The translations under genes were made by a program, and so were the position numbers. DNA of 64,000 nt, taken from assembly GCA_963833125.1 (NCBI GenBank), contig CAWHWX010000034.1, positions 32,001-96,000 on the forward strand, given 5' to 3'. Shown one piece after another: positions 32,477-44,944 of the stretch. The notes under the pieces were generated by a model that worked only from the letters and a program-made list of their open reading frames with translations, had not been told where the DNA came from and did no database searches. Source of the DNA: Candidatus Bathyarchaeota archaeon. Its GTDB lineage: Archaea > Thermoproteota > Bathyarchaeia > 40CM-2-53-6. Each line of letters opens with the position of its first letter. The stretch's first letter is position 1.

Positions 32477-34906
32477 ATGAAACGATCTCGACAATTACTC
32501 CCGTGCCTCGTGATCTTTTTAGCCCTTATGATTCCCGCCACTCAAATCGCATTCGCAATTCCGCCACTTGCAGCCGGCACATTTTCACCCGGTACAATTG
32601 TAGTTCCAATGGATGACAAGCAGGTCGATAGGATTCATGTTTACGGTTTCATTCACGAATTCCTGAGGAACAACCCAGGAAGCGTGGTCGCTCGTATTAT
32701 CGAACCACCAAACGTGATTCTTCAAACAGACCTGACTCCAGCGGGAGTGCTCTATCAAGGAGGCCCGTTCCTCATCGATTCAAGCTTTACTTCCGCTGTA
32801 AACGCGATGTTAGCTAATGCGACCTTCTCAAAAGTAACGACCACCCGTCTGTCAACCACGTTCACCTCGAACCGAGTCTTCTTCGTCCGGCAGCCTACTC
32901 GGATTCTTGTAATCAGTGACGGTTATTGGGGGAAGACCTTCCTGACGTTGGGCAGGATGGGTATCAGCTACACCCAGATCTCCACCGCTCAGGCTATGGC
33001 TAACCCATCAATCATCAATCAGTATACCTTGATCGTTCTGGACAGTCCGGGTTGGTACGGGAATCCGTCTGCCTATACGCCGTTGCACAGGTCGCAAATT
33101 ACGGCTGTGTATAATACGATTCAGGCGCGAGTTTCGGCAGGAAATGAGGTCATGTTTACCGATGCCGCGATATTCGACCTGAATTCTACGTTTCCAGGAT
33201 ACGTCAAGTTGGGAAACCCTGGTGAGACTGGGTCATGGAAGAGCATGATGAACAATCCGACCAAGGGCGACTCTGGATTTGATGCCGAATTTCCAAGTCA
33301 ATACTACAACCCAGGCCCCACTCCCAACGCAGTTACCATATTCACTGAGGAGGGTGTTGGAAATTGGGTTCCTAACGGGGTTCATCCAGGCCACACAGGC
33401 GACGTCAGGATTATAATGGATAGTACGAATTACGGAATCCCGAAACTTCCCTACTCGATCCTTGCCTTCTACTTCCCCTACGGGAACGGTATAGTTGAAG
33501 GGCTCGCGCTTCAACCCTACGAGCAGCTGTACCCAACCTACGCGGATTACAACGGGTATTATGCTGTATACCAGATTTATGGAAACAAATTCGTCGAAGG
33601 GCTGTCAGCAGACTTCTCACTCACGGCCTCCCCGCCGTCCGTAACGGTACAGAAGACCCAAACCGCCACCTACCAAGTCACGATTTCTTCGATTAGTAGT
33701 TTCTCAGGAACGGTTAACCTTCAAGTAAGTGGCCTACCTCCTGGCGCCCAAGCAGTCTTCACCCCTTCGGGATCAGTCGCGCTCGGCCAAGGTCAGTCTG
33801 TGGCTGAGACACTCAGCGTCCTCACGACTCAGAGCACGCCTCTCGGCAGTTACAACCTAACAATAACAGGCAGCACGAGCCAACCACTGATAACTCATAA
33901 CGTTGTTGTTGGCCTCGTTGTCACCACGCCACCCAGTGACTTCGGCATCGCGATAGCACCCAATCGACTCTACGTGAATCAAGGCCAATGCGGAAACTTC
34001 ACTATCACCGTGAATTCCATTGGAACCTTTAGCTCCGCGGTTAATCTCACACTAACCGGATTGCCCGCGCACGTATCTAGCCAATTCACAACGAACCCAA
34101 TAACGCCGCCAGCGGGAGCTACTGTTCAGTCGCTTCTGAAGGTGTGCCCAGCGTCCACCGCGGCTCCAGGTAATTACACGATCGTAATCGGTGGGACGAG
34201 CGGGGTTACGGTTCATACCGTTAACGCTATTCTGAGCATTCCGGGACCGACTGTCGTCACATATCCGTTTAACCCATTGATCTTCTGGCTCGTCATTGGC
34301 ATGCTACTCCTCGCGCTGGGTTTAGCGCTACTTGCCTTCGCGCTTTCAGGGAAACGTAGGCGGGTAGCCCCTGCAGCCGTTCCGATGGTTGCAGTCGCGC
34401 CACCGCCTAGGCAGCTGATACGATATATTCTGCCCATGCCTACCGTTCGTTGCAGGTATTGCGGCAGAGTCATGCCTCTTAACACGGTCTATTGTCCCTT
34501 CTGCGGAAGACCACAAGTCGTTCTACCGCCTCCGGCGCCACGACTTACCTCAGCTCGCCGACTAGGTGGAAAGAACATCATTGCAGTAATCCTATCGCTC
34601 TTATCAGGAATCTTAGTATTGCTGAATAGTGCTGCACTGCTTTCGCCTTCCTTCTTCGCTACATGGTCATCCATATTCTTCTGGCTACCGACCCTCGGAC
34701 CGTCCTACGCCTTCATGCTTGGAGCAATAATCGGTCTAACATTGATTCTCGGCGCGATCATAATGGCACTAAGTAACGGAGCTCTCGCTGATGTGATAAT
34801 ATTCCCATTCGCAATCTTCAGCTTAATCGTCGGAGGAGGATTCATCGCAGGAATGATCCTAGGAATTCTGGGCGGAATCCTCGCGATTGCCCGACGCAAC
34901 TCTTAA
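32477..34906 (+). CDS. Large cell-surface protein: signal peptide, Ig-like repeats, TM helix, zinc ribbon, C-terminal TM bundle
   Basis: Two DF(S/G)(L/I)...G.Y.(L/I).I.G repeats; CRYC...CPFC; GGGFIAG TM tail; GGAGG RBS. Confidence 0.8.
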   Translation: MKRSRQLLPCLVIFLALMIPATQIAFAIPPLAAGTFSPGTIVVPMDDKQVDRIHVYGFIHEFLRNNPGSVVARIIEPPNVILQTDLTPAGVLYQGGPFLIDSSFTSAVNAMLANATFSKVTTTRLSTTFTSNRVFFVRQPTRILVISDGYWGKTFLTLGRMGISYTQISTAQAMANPSIINQYTLIVLDSPGWYGNPSAYTPLHRSQITAVYNTIQARVSAGNEVMFTDAAIFDLNSTFPGYVKLGNPGETGSWKSMMNNPTKGDSGFDAEFPSQYYNPGPTPNAVTIFTEEGVGNWVPNGVHPGHTGDVRIIMDSTNYGIPKLPYSILAFYFPYGNGIVEGLALQPYEQLYPTYADYNGYYAVYQIYGNKFVEGLSADFSLTASPPSVTVQKTQTATYQVTISSISSFSGTVNLQVSGLPPGAQAVFTPSGSVALGQGQSVAETLSVLTTQSTPLGSYNLTITGSTSQPLITHNVVVGLVVTTPPSDFGIAIAPNRLYVNQGQCGNFTITVNSIGTFSSAVNLTLTGLPAHVSSQFTTNPITPPAGATVQSLLKVCPASTAAPGNYTIVIGGTSGVTVHTVNAILSIPGPTVVTYPFNPLIFWLVIGMLLLALGLALLAFALSGKRRRVAPAAVPMVAVAPPPRQLIRYILPMPTVRCRYCGRVMPLNTVYCPFCGRPQVVLPPPAPRLTSARRLGGKNIIAVILSLLSGILVLLNSAALLSPSFFATWSSIFFWLPTLGPSYAFMLGAIIGLTLILGAIIMALSNGALADVIIFPFAIFSLIVGGGFIAGMILGILGGILAIARRNS

Positions 34907-37199: not shown

Positions 37200-37520
37200 T
37201 TGACCCAAATAATGGCGGAAGTATGCCCAACTTGTGGGCTTCCAAAAGATTTGTGTGTCTGCGGAACCATCAGCATGGAACAGCAGCTTGTCAAGGTCCG
37301 CCTCGAAACCAGGAAATGGGGTAAGGCAACTACCATAATCGAGGGCATCAACTCAAAGAGCGTTGATCTTGGGGATCTCGGCGCCAAGCTGAAGACTTAC
37401 TGCGCCTGCGGTGGAACCTCAAAAGAGGGTCTGATAATGCTTCAGGGTGACCATCGCGGGAAAGTCAAAAAGTTGCTCGTGCAGTTTGGTTTTCCAGAAA
37501 CCTCAATAGAAATCCATTGA
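37200..37520 (+). CDS. sui1: Translation initiation factor aIF1 (SUI1/YciH)
   Basis: CPTCGLPKDLCVC, LKTYCACGGT, LQGDHR. Confidence 0.95.
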   Translation: MTQIMAEVCPTCGLPKDLCVCGTISMEQQLVKVRLETRKWGKATTIIEGINSKSVDLGDLGAKLKTYCACGGTSKEGLIMLQGDHRGKVKKLLVQFGFPETSIEIH

Positions 37521-37541
37521 CCCTATTCCCGGGAATATCAC

Positions 37542-37751
37542 TTGAGTTCGTTTTTTGACGCACTGAAGAATCTGAAACATTCGGGGCCTGCACCTCAGGC
37601 TTGTCCCGTGTGTGGCAGTGTTAAGATCAGGCAACAGGGATCCCTCTATGGCTGGCTACTGCCGGCTCTCTACGCGTGTGAACGCTGCGGTTACGTCGGC
37701 AGCCTGGTGTTAGAGCTGGACGAAGCAGCTGAAGACCAAGATCGAAAGTGA
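37542..37751 (+). CDS. Small zinc-ribbon protein
   Basis: CPVCGS...YACERCGYVG. Confidence 0.75.
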   Translation: MSSFFDALKNLKHSGPAPQACPVCGSVKIRQQGSLYGWLLPALYACERCGYVGSLVLELDEAAEDQDRK

Positions 37752-37765
37752 AACACTAATGTTCC

Positions 37766-38724
37766 ATGTTCGGAACATTAATATACGCCGCACTTCGACA
37801 CAAGAAAATCGGTTCCATCAAGGAGACTACGGCCAAAGTGCGGACACATGGAAGACTGACCCTCGCACTGTACCTGCTGCTCATACTCATTCTACCTTTG
37901 CTGATGGCTGGCATTCAAGCCGCCAAGGCAGATCAACCACTAGTCCGAACTGAATCCGTACAACTCAACGTCGGCGACACGCTTGTCATCCGGAGCGACC
38001 ACCTAGCCATACAACAGGTCTTCGTCGAAGGCAATTTCTCAACCACCCAGCTCATCAAACCCAGTCAATACCCAACAAATGACTTCGAACTCCAAGCTGG
38101 ATCAGCCGGCGGCTACGGGGTAAGGGTGATTTTCAGTCAGGCGACCGACTACAATGTCAACCTATTCGTTAGGCAGGATGGAACCAACGCGATTTGAAAA
38201 CAGTACGAGCTACTACGTATCCGGGGGGACACTCGAACTCGACGTGAGCGCTTACTTCAACCCAAGACCCATTGACATTGCAGCCGTTGCACCCTTGATT
38301 TCCCCATGGGACAGCTTAGTGGATTGGTTTGGCAGCTTCGGTCAGGCGTTCCCGTTGTGGGTCAAAGCCCTATACCTATTGCTAGGAGTACAATTTCTCG
38401 CTGTTGGCGGTTTGTGGATTCGACGCGAGACCGCAAGCCGAGAAGGGACCGCCCAGCGCTTGGACGGCGGGGACAAAGCCTACCTCTGGCTAGACATCGT
38501 TTACAAATTCCTACTAGCCTCGTTTGTCGCCATCGTGGCGATTATGGGAGGTGAGCTGATTCTACTATTCGTGTTGCGCTTCATGTTCCTGGTCTCAATC
38601 AACCTCCTTTCGCTATGGGATCTTTTCGTGGTGGGCTTTGCCGCGGGTGCGGTCATCATAGTCGTACCTGATCCGTTTCACGCTCGAGAAAGGTTTCGAC
38701 CTGAAACCTGTGGAAAGTGAGTAA
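37766..38724 (+). CDS. Membrane protein with extracellular beta-rich domain and three C-terminal TM helices (two frameshifts)
   Basis: ORFs 37766-38197 and 38154-38720 join near 38193; restored C-terminus YLIRFTLEKGFDLKPVESE ends at TAA 38724, 1 nt before the next ATG. Confidence 0.7.
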
Positions 38725-38725
38725 T

Positions 38726-41482
38726 ATGGAGGGCAAGCTTGACGATATTGAAGCCAGCCTACAAACCACGCTAGAAACTGAATCCGAGGAAACCTGGTGG
38801 AAGAAAACTGCGCCATTGAGGTGGGCGAACTATGTTCCACTCCGCCTCGTAGATAGGGAGTTTGTCAGGTGGCGAAAGTCAAGGATTTCGCCAAGGAAGT
38901 TTCGGAAGATACAACAACGGCTAGACCGTTTATACCCTCCAACCAGATTCTCCGCTACGAAGCTAATCGGTCGCGATAAAGAATACAACTTGCTGCTGGA
39001 TTCATTCAGACTGCACGTCCTTAAACACCCAATGCTCAGAAAATGGTTCAACAAGGACGAACTTCCAAAAGCGATTTGCCTGACCGGTGAAAGTGGCACC
39101 GGGAAAACATTCCTAACAATGGTTTCCTTGAAACAGATGCTGCTTGAGGCTCACAAGAACGGAATCTACCTATCCCCCATCATCATCAAGGGATCAGACG
39201 TATTCTCAGAATACTACGGTAGGAGTACCAAGCAGTTAGGGAAGCTTCTGGAACAAGCCGCCTCAGCCCCTTCAGTCGTCTACATTGATGAATTCCAAAG
39301 CTTCGGAAGAAAAGTACGTGGGGAAACAGGAACTGAACTGGAGGATACCCGAGTACAGGACGAGATAAACCGTTGGCTTGACAAAATCACAACCAACGAA
39401 GCAAGAACGCTCGTCATAGTCGCTACCAATTCTTACGAACAAACTCGCGAAGACATCCGCCGTCGACTCACACGTGTGGATCTAGATTCAGGCGTGACGA
39501 GGGAAATGCTGCTCGCTATTGTGGACGACAGAGCTACGGCTGAGGGTTGGAGAGGAGTTTCGTCAACAGAGATACTTGAGGTCCTCGAACGAGAAGCCGC
39601 CCTGCGAAGACATGGTTCGATCACTCCCAACGACATACTAGGAGTCTTCATAGAGGTGAAACGGGCCAAGGAAGTGCCCTTACTCGAAACGATCAGACGT
39701 TCAATGCCCGGTCCACTTTCGAAATGGACTAAGCCGATATACAAGGTAAGTTTGGAAGATTTTGCTCAAGCCGCGCATTCAATGAAGTTCTACGTAGAGC
39801 GCGAAAAATCACGAGAAATTACCGACGCCGTCTACCTAGTTACGCCCAAGGCTAGGAGAGATGACATTGGTGGTCTTCATGACATAAGAGACAAAGTGTT
39901 AAACCACATTTCACTCGCTTTCAGTCGAAAAATGTCCCAACTCGGTTATGCGTCCAACTGCAGGTTTCTACTATTCGGTCCACCAGGGACGGGAAAGACA
40001 TTGCTCGCAATGGTAGCGGCGGCCGAGAACAAAGTCGCTTTCATCAAAGTAAGAGGAGGAGAACTGATGAGCGGGGCAACCTACATAGGAGAACCTGAGA
40101 AACGTATCAAAGATCTATTCGCTCTCGCCAGACAACGAACCCCCTGCATTCTTTTCCTCGACGAAGCCGACGCGATCTTCTGGGGCGCAGATCCCACTGG
40201 AAACAAAATCTTGGCACAAGTGAAAGCCGAGCTCAGCGAGATCAAGCCTGATGAAGGAATCGTGGTCATCGCCGCTTCGAACAAAGAAAACCTCATCGAC
40301 CAAGCAACCAGAGACAGGTTTGAACCCAACGTCTACTACGTCCACCCCCCGCTGAACGATCAAGAATGGCATGAAGTGGTAGGCATCCACCTACGAAGAT
40401 TCGATCGGTTCATACATCCAGAAGTCGATGCAGCGAAAATCACACGTTTGCTTAGAATGCAACGAATCCTCAGCCCCAGAGCCGCATCTGAAACTATTGC
40501 AGAAGCCCACAGGCTATGGGCGTCGGAAATAAGCGCGGTCAGTGAATTGCGTGCTTGCAAAGATAACGGGGATAGGGAGGCGGTTGAAAAGAAGTATTCG
40601 ACGGACCTAAGCAGGCTGCGTTCTGCGCTTGACGGCTCAGAGCATCCGCAATTGTCAATTGAGCAAATCGACGAAAGCAACTATCCGATGCGCCTCTACC
40701 ACTTTGAAAAAGCGATTCAGGCACTTGAATCGAACCAGGCTAGACAAAGGAGAGAGATGGAAGAAGCATTAATCCTTACAACACCCACACCAGGAGCTTC
40801 CTTCGGGCTCTACGCTACCGAAGACGGAACCGGGGGCATAATCACGGTTCAATGCTCAGTCAGGCCTATGATATCCGGCGAACGCCAAGTCTCTGTGACT
40901 GGGAATGCAACTTCAGCCGTAATCGGTCAAAGCGTCGTCTCAGATGAGTCAGTGCTTCAAAGTGCGGAAAACGCCACAGAAGCAATCAGCTCACTTCTAT
41001 GGGCCGCGTCTCAAGTGGACCTAAGTCGGTTACACATACACTTCCAGATCAGGAGTATTTTGGAGGGCGCGCCTGGGCAAGGAGTTTCAGGGCCAAGCGC
41101 CGGGTTAGCTATGGTCTTAGCTCTCCTCTCAGAGCTGGCTGGACTTCCAATCTCCCCCGCCACTGTCGCAACCGGAACCATAGGGGTAAAGCTCGACGTG
41201 GGGCCGGTAGGTGGGCTGGGTGGCTACGGGACCCAAACCGGAAAGATCGTCGGGATCCTGAAATCCCAAAAGATTCGCATTACCGACTTGGTCCTGCCAG
41301 CAGCTAACTTCGAAGCTGCAGGTGACGAAATGCGGATTCTGACCGAGGAAGGAGTGAACGTACGTCCTGTGTCGGACGTATCGGAGTGTTTGAAGACAAT
41401 CTTCGGTAAGGATATGTACGAACTAGTGGCTGAAATAAAGAAAAGGTTTGAGACAGCTCGGTTGGTAGCTCAGTCGTATTAG
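38726..41482 (+). CDS. Tandem AAA+ ATPase (Cdc48/VAT-like D1-D2) fused to a Lon (S16) protease domain
   Basis: GESGTGKT/VYIDE and GPPGTGKT/LFLDEAD; C-terminal LHIHF...SGPSAGLAM...TGTI...PVGGL...GKIVG. Confidence 0.88.
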   Translation: MEGKLDDIEASLQTTLETESEETWWKKTAPLRWANYVPLRLVDREFVRWRKSRISPRKFRKIQQRLDRLYPPTRFSATKLIGRDKEYNLLLDSFRLHVLKHPMLRKWFNKDELPKAICLTGESGTGKTFLTMVSLKQMLLEAHKNGIYLSPIIIKGSDVFSEYYGRSTKQLGKLLEQAASAPSVVYIDEFQSFGRKVRGETGTELEDTRVQDEINRWLDKITTNEARTLVIVATNSYEQTREDIRRRLTRVDLDSGVTREMLLAIVDDRATAEGWRGVSSTEILEVLEREAALRRHGSITPNDILGVFIEVKRAKEVPLLETIRRSMPGPLSKWTKPIYKVSLEDFAQAAHSMKFYVEREKSREITDAVYLVTPKARRDDIGGLHDIRDKVLNHISLAFSRKMSQLGYASNCRFLLFGPPGTGKTLLAMVAAAENKVAFIKVRGGELMSGATYIGEPEKRIKDLFALARQRTPCILFLDEADAIFWGADPTGNKILAQVKAELSEIKPDEGIVVIAASNKENLIDQATRDRFEPNVYYVHPPLNDQEWHEVVGIHLRRFDRFIHPEVDAAKITRLLRMQRILSPRAASETIAEAHRLWASEISAVSELRACKDNGDREAVEKKYSTDLSRLRSALDGSEHPQLSIEQIDESNYPMRLYHFEKAIQALESNQARQRREMEEALILTTPTPGASFGLYATEDGTGGIITVQCSVRPMISGERQVSVTGNATSAVIGQSVVSDESVLQSAENATEAISSLLWAASQVDLSRLHIHFQIRSILEGAPGQGVSGPSAGLAMVLALLSELAGLPISPATVATGTIGVKLDVGPVGGLGGYGTQTGKIVGILKSQKIRITDLVLPAANFEAAGDEMRILTEEGVNVRPVSDVSECLKTIFGKDMYELVAEIKKRFETARLVAQSY

Positions 41483-42412
41483 ATATCGAGCTTGAGCGCT
41501 TCTTTTAATCCCTTGTACCGGTTTCTGACTGTTACCTCGGTAACGTTAGCTACTTCAGCTATCTCTTTCTGGGTTTTCTTTTCCCCTTCGAGGACACACG
41601 CCACGTAGAGCGATGCCGCGGCCAAGCCCATTGGGTCTTTGCCTGCGACTATGCCTTTTCGTTTCGCCTCGTTGATGATTCTGATTGCACGCTGCTGGGT
41701 TGGCATCGAGATTTCGACTTTGGTTGCTATCTTTGAGATGCATTTCACTGGATCCTCGACTGGCATTCTAAGGTCGAGTTCCCTGACGAGGAGTCGGTAG
41801 CATCTTGCTACGTCCTTCTTGCGGATCCTGCTCGCTGCGGATACGTCTTTGAGGGTTCTTGGTGTTTCGGACATTCGGCATGCGGCGTAGAGTGAAGCGG
41901 CGGCTATGGCTGCGATTGACCGTCCTCTTACCAGGCCGTTGTCCAGAGCTTTGCGGTAAACGATTGCGGCCCGTTCTTTGATGGAAGCGGGTATGTGTAG
42001 CATGTCAGTTAAGCGATCGAGTTCGGCCATCGCTTGGGCTAGGTTTCTGTCGGCTGAGGAGTGGACTCGTGTTCGTATCTGCCATTTTCTCAGGCGGAGC
42101 ATTTCAAGTCTGGTTGCCAGGGGCAGTTGGCGACCGTACGCGTCCTCGGTTCACCCGATCAATTACAGTTGATAATCCTTTGTCGTGAATGGAGAATGAT
42201 GTTGGGATACCTACGCAACCTCGTTCATCCTTCTCTTCTTTGGTGAAGGCGCGCCATTCTGGACCTGTGTTTAACGAGTGTTCACTTATGACTAGGCCAC
42301 AGTTGTGGCAACTGATCTCGCCGACATCGTAATCTTCTACTAGGTTTGTGCTGCCACATTCGGGGCAGTTAGTTAACTTTCCAACTTTCCTTGTGGTTGC
42401 GCTTGTACTCAT
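41479..42412 (-). CDS. tfb: Transcription initiation factor B (frameshift near 42145)
   Basis: CPECGS zinc ribbon, GPEWRAF, HDKGLST, LRKWQ, GKDPMGLAAA, VTEVTVRNRYK. Confidence 0.96.
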
Positions 42413-43670: not shown

Positions 43671-44944
43671 CTAGTTTGAAACCTTCATCCACCCCTCCAA
43701 CCGTTGCCAATCCCAGTCATAGTTCTCTGGAACGGCGAAACCGTAGATTATGCACCCATGCCAAACCGAGAACTGCGGTGAACTGGTCATCTTGACTGAA
43801 ACATTCTTGATACCGCGATCCCGCAGCAGAAGACGCACCTTCGCGGGAGCGTCAACTGCGATCTCTTGTAACTTGGGCGGTACGGTCCAGCTGAAATTTC
43901 CACCCGACAAGAGGACTTCGCGATAGAGCATGGGTTGGAGTTCAACTGGGCAACGTTCAACCGAGGCGATTATCGCCTCACCGAAATCCAGCATACCCCT
44001 GAAGACCGTGTCGCCCATCTTGACGTCCTTCGGTCTCGGCATTCCGCAGGCTGAAGTAGCTCTCGAAAATCTCGTGGTTCGGATTGAACACATATTCACC
44101 GATAAGATATCTTGACCACGAGTCCTTCTCAAGGTCTATCTCAACACGCATTTCCGGGGACTCTGTACTTTGCTCTGGATTTTCGCGGGAATTTCTTTGC
44201 GTCCGCGATTGCGCTGTCCAGGTTTCCGGGGACTAGGCCAATGTTTTCCTTGACCTTCCTTACTACCGCTTCCTCATTTGCCAGGTCGCCATAACCAGAA
44301 TCCTTGAGGATCTCCGATGTTATCGCATTCGCGTCTCCGCCGCCCCGGTTCAACGCTACTTGTGCGGCTCGGATGGGATATTTCGAGATTGGGCACACTT
44401 GACTGTTTCCATGTCCGGACTCGATAACCACACAAGTAGTGACTCCATGGCCGATGGCGACGGCGAATGGTTGCGGGATGACGGTGACTGCTCTGATCCT
44501 TCCGTGGTTATTGTCTTGGAATAACCCAAGCAGTTTCTCGTACATATAGCGGGGGGAAACTGATGACAGGGACGCGACTACATAGTATCCTTGAAAGCCA
44601 TTATTTGGTTCAGGTTTGAAGGCGTCTAAGCTGTAGGAGGATAGGCTGCTTACTCACCGCCAGGCTTGGTCGTCGCTTTTGTCGATCATGCCGTTGCGCA
44701 TGGGATAGATCAGGCGACTTGACAGATCTTCGGCGGACTGCAAGTAAAGAGGCACGTCTTCCCCCACAATCACGTCGGATGTCGGTTCGAATGCCTTGTA
44801 GATGACGGAGCTTTTGTCGGGGAAATAGCCCCGGTTGTTTACGATTCTTGGATTTTCGCCAAGGGTTATTGGGCCAAATTTGAAGTCGCTTGTGCCGAAG
44901 TCCATAGCGAAGGTATAGTGGCTTCGATAGTTGTCGCCGCTCAT
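43671..44944 (-). CDS. Crenactin (archaeal actin), several frameshifts
   Basis: YTFAMDFGTS..KFGPITL, YPMRNG, PQPFAVAI, ESGHGNSQVCPIS, NRGGGDANAITSEILKD, LSGGNFSW, PQFSVWHG. Confidence 0.93.

Follow-up and report, generated by a model that had tools for sequence, protein, structure and literature searches.

The DNA studied here is a stretch of 64,000 nucleotides (the window) from contig CAWHWX010000034.1 of a Candidatus Bathyarchaeota archaeon, and all coordinates refer to it. It contains a gene in which two AAA ATPase modules are followed by a Lon-type protease domain, hereafter AAA-AAA-Lon, with a gene for a membrane protein (the partner) directly upstream on the same strand. The AAA-AAA-Lon gene is a single intact open reading frame (ORF) with no internal stop, starting at an ATG and with an alternative GTG start at 38717, three codons upstream. 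Its parts are the following:

38726..41482, plus strand: AAA-AAA-Lon gene, stop included, 918 amino acids; Pfam and NCBIfam matches, 93% identity over 100% of the length to P0002 (other assemblies)
38726..39037, plus strand: N-terminal basic helical region, residues 1-104, with invariant WW (24-25), P38, L39 and W49
39038..39745, plus strand: D1 AAA module, residues 105-340; Walker A K127, pore loop Y164-G165, Walker B D188/E189, N235, R245-R247
39848..40405, plus strand: D2 AAA module, residues 375-560; Walker A K424, pore loop Y453-x-GEPE, Walker B D479/E480, N519, R531
40406..40774, plus strand: helical D2 lid and linker, residues 561-683; AlphaFold2 (AF2) helices 569-579, 584-610, 614-636 and 657-681
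40775..41458, plus strand: Lon (S16) protease domain, residues 684-911, delimited by Pfam Lon_C, the AfLonB alignment and family conservation
41096-41098 and 41243-41245, plus strand: codons of Ser791 and Lys840, respectively

Domain architecture of the protein

The original prediction, made by reading the letters alone, had quoted motifs for both ATPase modules and for the protease, and every one of them was found in the translation: GESGTGKT (K127), SEYYG (Y164), YIDE (D188/E189), ATN (N235) and RRR (245-247) in D1; GPPGTGKT (K424), TYIGE (Y453), FLDE (D479/E480), ASN (N519) and RDRF (R529/R531) in D2; and GPSAG (S791), PVGGL (827-831) and Lys840, at +49 from Ser791, in the Lon part. The Pfam scan detected AAA in two stretches (E 2.7e-49) and Lon_C (PF05362) at residues 684-893, covering profile positions 22-203 of 205 (E 1.3e-12, 48.2 bits against a cut-off of 21.1). 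The NCBIfam CDC48 model is collinear with residues 99-560. This pattern of domains and motifs is far beyond chance.

The AF2 model, built from an alignment of 36 rows, has a mean predicted local distance difference test score (pLDDT) of 78 and a predicted template-modelling score of 0.51. In it a helical N-terminus is followed by two AAA modules of alpha/beta type, and a helical linker (about 561-683) then leads to a C-terminal domain that is also alpha/beta. When the model was compared with the PDB by Foldseek, p97, Cdc48, VAT and Rix7 ranked first, with about 620 aligned columns (E 2e-28), and VAT is the best PDB match of the protein by sequence (E 1.8e-50). The N-terminus is modelled as helices at 29-42, 44-51 and 56-69 with a pLDDT of about 60-75, and residues 20-75 include 16 K/R versus 5 D/E. 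No Pfam family matched the first 104 residues and a search of the ESM Atlas gave nothing above the bar; neither Pfam nor NCBIfam had a family matching the lid and linker. The protein has no transmembrane (TM) segment in D1, D2 or elsewhere, its sole hydrophobic stretch being the helix that follows Ser791. Contigs from two peat RNA libraries cover 40923-41103 with 0 differences from the window and 40368-40560 and 40268-40479 with 8-9 differences; transcription is not implied by these matches.

A conserved family with both parts in one chain

Assemblies of JGI, ENA, NCBI and Logan supplied the 120 best relatives among 5.8 billion proteins, and 117 of these have both PF00004 and PF05362 in about 900-930 amino acids; the three without PF05362 are shorter (702-822 amino acids). 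These data bear on the suspicion that assembly created the ORF by wrongly joining a Cdc48-like gene to a Lon gene, which could be raised because the window assembly has single-base errors nearby. Such a chimeric join is excluded by the 117 relatives that carry both domains in these several collections and by the stop-free, full-length ORFs found across many genera, so that we give the artefact next to no credence and take the fusion, as originally proposed, to be a genuine gene.

The family was matched (E <= 1e-40) in 52 genomes, belonging to 23 of 123 genera, out of a sample of 301 from the phylum. Most are full length (query about 17-910) at 33-39% identity with no stops, a few being cut by contig ends, and nearly all the positive genomes have one copy. 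The labelled bins of metagenome-assembled genomes that carry the family include Bathyarchaeia, Methanomethylicia, Hecatellales and bins labelled as Nitrososphaerota, Sulfolobales and Odinarchaeia. An exhaustive profile search of 1.84 billion representatives yielded about 22 full-length clusters at 50% identity, with Marsarchaeota, "archaeon" and a "Nealsonbacteria" bin among the named members. All members come from uncultured lineages, which may be why databases label the relatives only as "AAA family ATPase", "SpoVK/Ycf46/Vps4 family" or "transitional endoplasmic reticulum ATPase". Two AAA-AAA-Lon paralogues (L021 and L046, with 73% and 36% identity to the window protein) occur together in a single Bathyarchaeota bin, one accompanied by the long form of the partner described below and the other by the short form.

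Conservation was followed in an alignment of 36 sequences (36-93% identity) and in a wider set of 22 family representatives taken from the 50% clusters. Invariant in the 36 sequences are G121/G124/G126/K127, D188/E189, Y164/G165 and R245-R247 of D1; P420-T425, D479/E480, G455-E458, N519 and R531 of D2; and G786, V787, G789-S791, G793 and G839/K840 of the Lon part. In the wider set, the Walker A and B motifs of D2 are present in 22/22 and the DE of the D1 Walker B in 18/22, while the catalytic Ser is found in 22/22, the Lys in 21/22 and the sequence GPS[AL]G in 20/22.

Ancestry of the two ATPase modules

Scanned alone against NCBIfam, D1 matched best to positions 198-338 of the CDC48 model and D2 to positions 442-639. 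The FtsH, PAN, IteA and CdvC models rank next for both, and the Lon ATPase model of the HCLR clade reached only E 7e-4 with D2; the single HCLR module characteristic of Lon is not what this protein has. The whole protein scores 49.8 bits against the Lon model TIGR00763, whose cut-off is 608. Because the CDC48, FtsH, PAN and CdvC models outrank the Lon ATPase model, both motors can be assigned to the classical clade, in agreement with the assignment made from the motifs.

A tree was built with 61 AAA modules, namely D1 and D2 of 14 family members and of 16 Cdc48-like proteins plus the single-module CdvC-like protein of the same genome. The rows were chosen among proteins with the expected Walker A count, and PAN, FtsH and Lon ATPases were left out. 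The family D2 modules form a clade (100/99) within a group that includes all the Cdc48 D2 modules and CdvC (94/90). In this tree D2 is therefore Cdc48-D2-like.

The predicted protease centre

Among solved structures, the C-terminal 246 residues find their best relative in the protease domain of Archaeoglobus fulgidus LonB (AfLonB, 1z0e; E 1.3e-7 in the HMMER alignment). The alignment is gapless from GVSGPSAG to PVGG and is followed by a gap of 6 residues, so that S791 coincides with the Ser of GDSAS and K840 with the Lys of TQKIEA; the deposited variants of the 1z0e chain differ precisely at the two residues preceding the Ser. The predicted insert, which moves the Lys to +49 instead of +43, is thus borne out. 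An insert of 4-6 residues between the GG turn and the Lys is present in all the family members, with 6 in the window protein. According to a 2022 paper on the subject (PMC9569914), Lon subfamilies have Ser and Lys separated by exactly 42 residues, A-type centres have a Pro before the Ser, and LonB enzymes have a different, invariant residue there. Since in the window protein a Pro precedes the Ser and 48 residues lie between the pair, the predicted centre is best described as A-type with a family-specific insert. In the AF2 model helices are found directly after S791 (793-805) and around K840 (835-846).

The domain is of the Lon (S16) type, with a Lon_C match above threshold, Ser and Lys aligned at homologous positions and both conserved across the family, as the original prediction had held. 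It could nevertheless have lost proteolysis and serve as a structural or regulatory ring, as in RadA/ComM or BrxL, the protein being then only an unfoldase or extractase. The insert before the Lys, the modest Lon_C score (48 bits) and the poorly modelled loop before the Ser motif (residues 781-784, pLDDT < 50) would fit this idea. The retention of Ser, Lys and GPS[AL]G in the divergent representatives is, however, the pattern expected under selection for catalysis, and we regard a non-proteolytic domain as unlikely.

The membrane partner

The gene upstream of AAA-AAA-Lon is the following:

37766..38723, plus strand: membrane-partner gene, broken into 37766-38197 and 38154-38720; true stop TAA at 38721-38723

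In close relatives the partner is one ORF of 285-314 amino acids, consisting of an N-terminal hydrophobic helix (signal anchor), an ectodomain of beta-sandwich type, three TM helices toward the C-terminus and an acidic tail with the conserved motif FDLKPxEDE. Its AF2 model (21-row alignment, pLDDT 84) has strands at 37-143 and helices at 175-205, 212-252 and 261-288. Distant relatives have either a form of 258-297 amino acids ending in W[RK]G[LW][YF][DE]x[IV]DEE[DE] or one of 124-138 amino acids that corresponds to the TM module alone. When the partner forms (A, B and S) were compared by hhalign, A and B were linked with 93.7% probability over 222 columns and B and S with 99.8%, A and S with only 43%; on these profile links the partner families are taken to be homologous. 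One of the short-form proteins gave only weak Pfam matches (E >= 0.044), under the cut-offs.

Both pieces in the window are homologous to the single ORF of the relatives. The breaks coincide with single extra bases near 38193 and 38661, which are absent from related contigs of other sequencing runs, the contig covering 38661 having one other letter different over 210 bases. Read in the other frame, the tail of the window copy is ...FDLKPVESE, fitting the FDLKPxEDE of the relatives, with its stop two bases before the protease ATG. The two insertions are probably assembly errors.

The association with the protease was surveyed at all 46 loci that hold the full family (L009-L054). Another set of loci (L055-L098) was excluded, since their matches cover only the query at about 17-595 (28-33% identity), a coverage that marks ordinary double-AAA proteins. 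In 44 of the 46 loci there is a same-strand ORF with at least 3 hydrophobic helices and an acidic tail that ends a few bases from the protease start or overlaps it. In the remaining two, both of Odinarchaeia (L052, L053), a module of four TM helices with the acidic motif is fused in frame directly before the PWW motif. The loci are related to one another, yet they span 36-80% identity and several classes.

The original prediction had described a self-contained three-ring protease. The architecture of an ATP-dependent protease holds, and the three rings would follow from homology, but "self-contained" is not supported as worded, with a membrane-protein gene coupled in 46/46 loci, twice as a fusion; this strict coupling argues for a two-part or fused, membrane-tethered machine. 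The window chain has no TM helix of its own, and one may still think of a soluble and self-sufficient protease whose upstream neighbor is a co-transcribed substrate, a regulator or simply an unrelated gene. Against this stand the persistence of the pair over such divergence, usually with overlapping stop and start, and the two in-frame fusions: fusion to a substrate would be self-destructive, while fusion to an anchor is the arrangement seen in FtsH. We consider a soluble enzyme improbable.

Comparison with known ATP-dependent proteases and unfoldases

With Cdc48, p97 and VAT the protein shares the tandem of classical D1 and D2 modules, collinear with the CDC48 model, and a D2 that groups with theirs. 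It differs in having a strongly divergent D1 and, instead of the Cdc48 N domain, the basic helical N-terminus of 104 amino acids. Neither CDC48_N nor CDC48_2 appears among the 25 best Pfam families, and the CDC48 model aligns only from its position 198. The score against TIGR01243 is 168.5 bits, far from the cut-off of 802.65. Cdc48 and VAT feed the 20S proteasome in trans, whereas AAA-AAA-Lon has its own protease, and a conserved C-terminal hydrophobic-Tyr-X (HbYX) motif was found in 0 of 15 family C-termini.

With the Lon proteases (S16: LonA, LonB, LonC and LonBA) it has in common the Lon_C proteolytic domain, the Ser-Lys dyad and the union of ATPase and protease in one chain, and with the A-type centres the Pro before the Ser, as given in PMC9569914. 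Lon has one HCLR-clade module where AAA-AAA-Lon has two of the classical clade, and a Ser-Lys gap of 42 residues rather than 48. The LON N domain is missing, as is a membrane-anchoring insert inside the ATPase, the anchor being here a separate protein. Archaeal LonB is likewise a membrane-associated, ATP-dependent Lon-type protease, but it has two TM helices inside its single AAA+ module and a B-type centre with Asp before the Ser; the window protein lacks a TM insert in D1 and D2 and scores 33.7 bits against TIGR00764 (cut-off 516.6).

FtsH and the m-AAA and i-AAA proteases resemble it in coupling a classical AAA motor to a protease in one chain at the membrane, with an entry face that would be turned toward the membrane. 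The extracytoplasmic domain of the partner, flanked by TM helices, recalls the N-terminus of FtsH, and in the Odinarchaeia the TM module is actually fused at the N-terminus. The protease is nevertheless a Ser-Lys Lon domain and not the M41 zinc protease of FtsH, there are two AAA rings versus one, and most lineages encode the anchor as a protein of its own. In the window protein, which has neither M41 nor N-terminal TM segments, the matches to FtsH models are confined to the AAA core (residues 380-574).

As the defining features of Lon (one HCLR module, spacing of 42), of Cdc48 (N domain, model threshold) and of FtsH (M41) are not found, AAA-AAA-Lon is a new combination of known modules. The suggestion that this architecture had not been described agrees with the literature: no published description was found in the full-text search, most subscription journals and supplements lying outside its scope. 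The arrangement is absent from the available parts of the Lon subfamily scheme (A, B, C and BA; PMC9569914) and of a 2008 table of Lon_C architectures, and "Lon" has 0 occurrences in the survey of Cdc48 family evolution PMC5070193 and none in PMC6393860.

Genomic setting

The surrounding genes recognized in the window are listed below.

32477-34906, plus strand: ORF of 809 amino acids with only weak zinc-ribbon and NPCBM_assoc matches
37200-37751, plus strand: SUI1/eIF1-like gene (SUI1 read from the translation) and an ORF of 69 amino acids with four Cys (CxxC-type), upstream of the partner
41479-42412, minus strand: TFB (TFIIB), split into a Zn-ribbon ORF (42412..42104) and a cyclin-repeat ORF (42102..41479); one frame in relatives
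43671-44545, minus strand: actin-like (crenactin-type) gene, split into two ORFs with weak Pfam Actin matches

The neighbors are SUI1, the small zinc-ribbon protein, TFB, a Drg-type GTPase, an RDD protein and the actin-like gene, with a synteny common to close Bathyarchaeia, and the context is that of housekeeping genes. The order SUI1, Zn-ribbon, partner, AAA-AAA-Lon, TFB is found in 5 of the 7 Bathyarchaeia loci holding SUI1 and Zn-ribbon; at L026 and L037 these two genes are on the opposite strand. TFB is convergent with AAA-AAA-Lon, overlapping its stop by 4 bases. It is also where contigs from an RNA library are deepest within the stretch, and one RNA contig skips 42096-42231. The halves of the actin-like gene are in one frame in relatives (L020, L022, L024 and L028).

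Extra single bases relative to contigs of other runs were detected at 38193, 38661, 42146, 44048 and 44149, and each falls on a frame break of a conserved gene: the partner twice, TFB once and the actin-like gene twice. Between these breaks the 2.75-kb AAA-AAA-Lon ORF is unbroken. The window looks like an indel-prone assembly, which may also lower the estimate of completeness (87.8%) of the genome.

This setting bears on whether the pair might be an anti-phage or conflict system of the AAA-plus-protease type, similar to Iet. PADLOC IetA models do match the D2 region (E 1e-31), as does the NCBIfam IteA model, but these matches cover only the generic AAA core, there is no IetS-type protease as in IetAS and 0 of 8 neighbors were matched in the PADLOC scan. 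A location among SUI1, TFB, Drg and actin-like genes, conserved in close relatives, and the single copy in nearly all the positive genomes are not the context of defence either, and we find this explanation very hard to sustain.

Elsewhere in the genome there are two Cdc48 genes of 741 amino acids, three proteasome-subunit genes and a CdvC/Vps4-like ATPase (E 5.9e-146), this set being made up of proteins on contigs C28 (101421-102548), C18, C14, C1 and C7. No PAN was found above cut-off at 87.8% completeness, and Cdc48 may be the only proteasome activator. The only other Lon found at this completeness is a Lon-like protein of 799 amino acids without TM segments. Membrane LonB (TIGR00764, E < 1e-100) was detected in 18 of the 301 sampled genomes, all in the class of the window, and two examples (L100, L101) each have two TM helices after the Walker A. 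Two LonB-type ORFs from a pair of related genomes, G252:C79:19799-21169 and G264:C29:2662-4056, contain one in-frame TAG each.

A proposed membrane-tethered protease

What has been observed is the order of the domains, the conservation of the catalytic and ATPase residues and a membrane protein that is strictly coupled, or fused, to the enzyme. From these observations we propose that AAA-AAA-Lon is a hexameric, membrane-tethered, processive Ser-Lys protease working like FtsH or LonB, a reading that we hold with a probability of about two thirds. The gene product would be the catalytic subunit of an ATP-dependent, self-compartmentalized protease attached to the membrane. By homology with Cdc48/VAT and Lon, six subunits would form three stacked rings, one each of D1, D2 and the Lon-type protease domain. 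The aromatic pore loops, Y164 in D1 and Y453 in D2, would grip the substrate, and ATP hydrolysis in D2, probably in D1 too, would thread it into a chamber lined by Ser791-Lys840 dyads. The cytoplasmic acidic C-terminal tail of the partner may dock on the basic N-terminal region of the protease, which fits the excess of K/R over D/E in its residues 20-75. Docking of this kind would bring the D1 side, where substrates enter, up to the membrane, as in FtsH. The enzyme would most likely serve in the quality control of membrane and membrane-proximal proteins or in their regulated turnover.

Several results weigh against this proposal. The D1 modules of the family form a clade (100/98) on a long branch that does not join the Cdc48 D1 and is very divergent, and 4 of the 22 wider representatives have lost the D1 Walker B. 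The Ser-Lys spacing departs from that stated for Lon, and the insert block responsible (831-840) has a pLDDT of 71, a moderate confidence. For the partner, Pfam gave 0 matches with four long-form proteins, one short-form protein and the two pieces of the window, Foldseek against the PDB gave only generic beta-sandwich or immunoglobulin-like matches (TM score < 0.2), and the ESM Atlas returned only its own unnamed Bathyarchaeota clusters, under the bar. If the frameshifts in the partner gene were real, the window copy would be without a partner. Finally, the overlap between the 18 genomes with LonB and the 52 with AAA-AAA-Lon is 0 among 301, a weak figure given that about 3 would be expected if both were independent, that the genomes are kin and that 231 of the 301 have neither; it is a weak hint of functional replacement between the two.

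A more daring version of the tethered protease, which we put forward tentatively and think rather doubtful, is that the 3-4 TM helices of the partner form a hexameric collar on D1, through which membrane and secreted proteins, misfolded or under regulation, would be extracted from the bilayer and degraded in one pass. If true, the machine would join in one complex what eukaryotes split between the Cdc48-driven dislocation of endoplasmic-reticulum-associated degradation and the proteasome. Beside FtsH and LonB there would then be a third class of membrane AAA proteases, of independent construction and spanning TACK archaea, Marsarchaeota and Odinarchaeia.

The energy-dependent proteases are of only a few kinds, namely Lon, FtsH, Clp, HslUV and the proteasome with PAN, Cdc48 or Mpa, and to our knowledge textbooks limit the archaea to the proteasome and LonB. 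A conserved double motor of the Cdc48 type with a Lon peptidase and a membrane subunit of its own would extend this list by a new build, and would show that classical-clade AAA motors have been joined not only to a zinc protease but also to a serine-lysine one. Such a machine is at the same time a natural experiment: it asks whether an unfoldase of type II, with two rings, is able to feed a protease ring to which it is covalently bound. Quality control of membrane proteins is the job of FtsH in bacteria and of LonB in other archaea, and AAA-AAA-Lon would be a candidate for this function in the many Thermoproteota-type archaea where no LonB was found.

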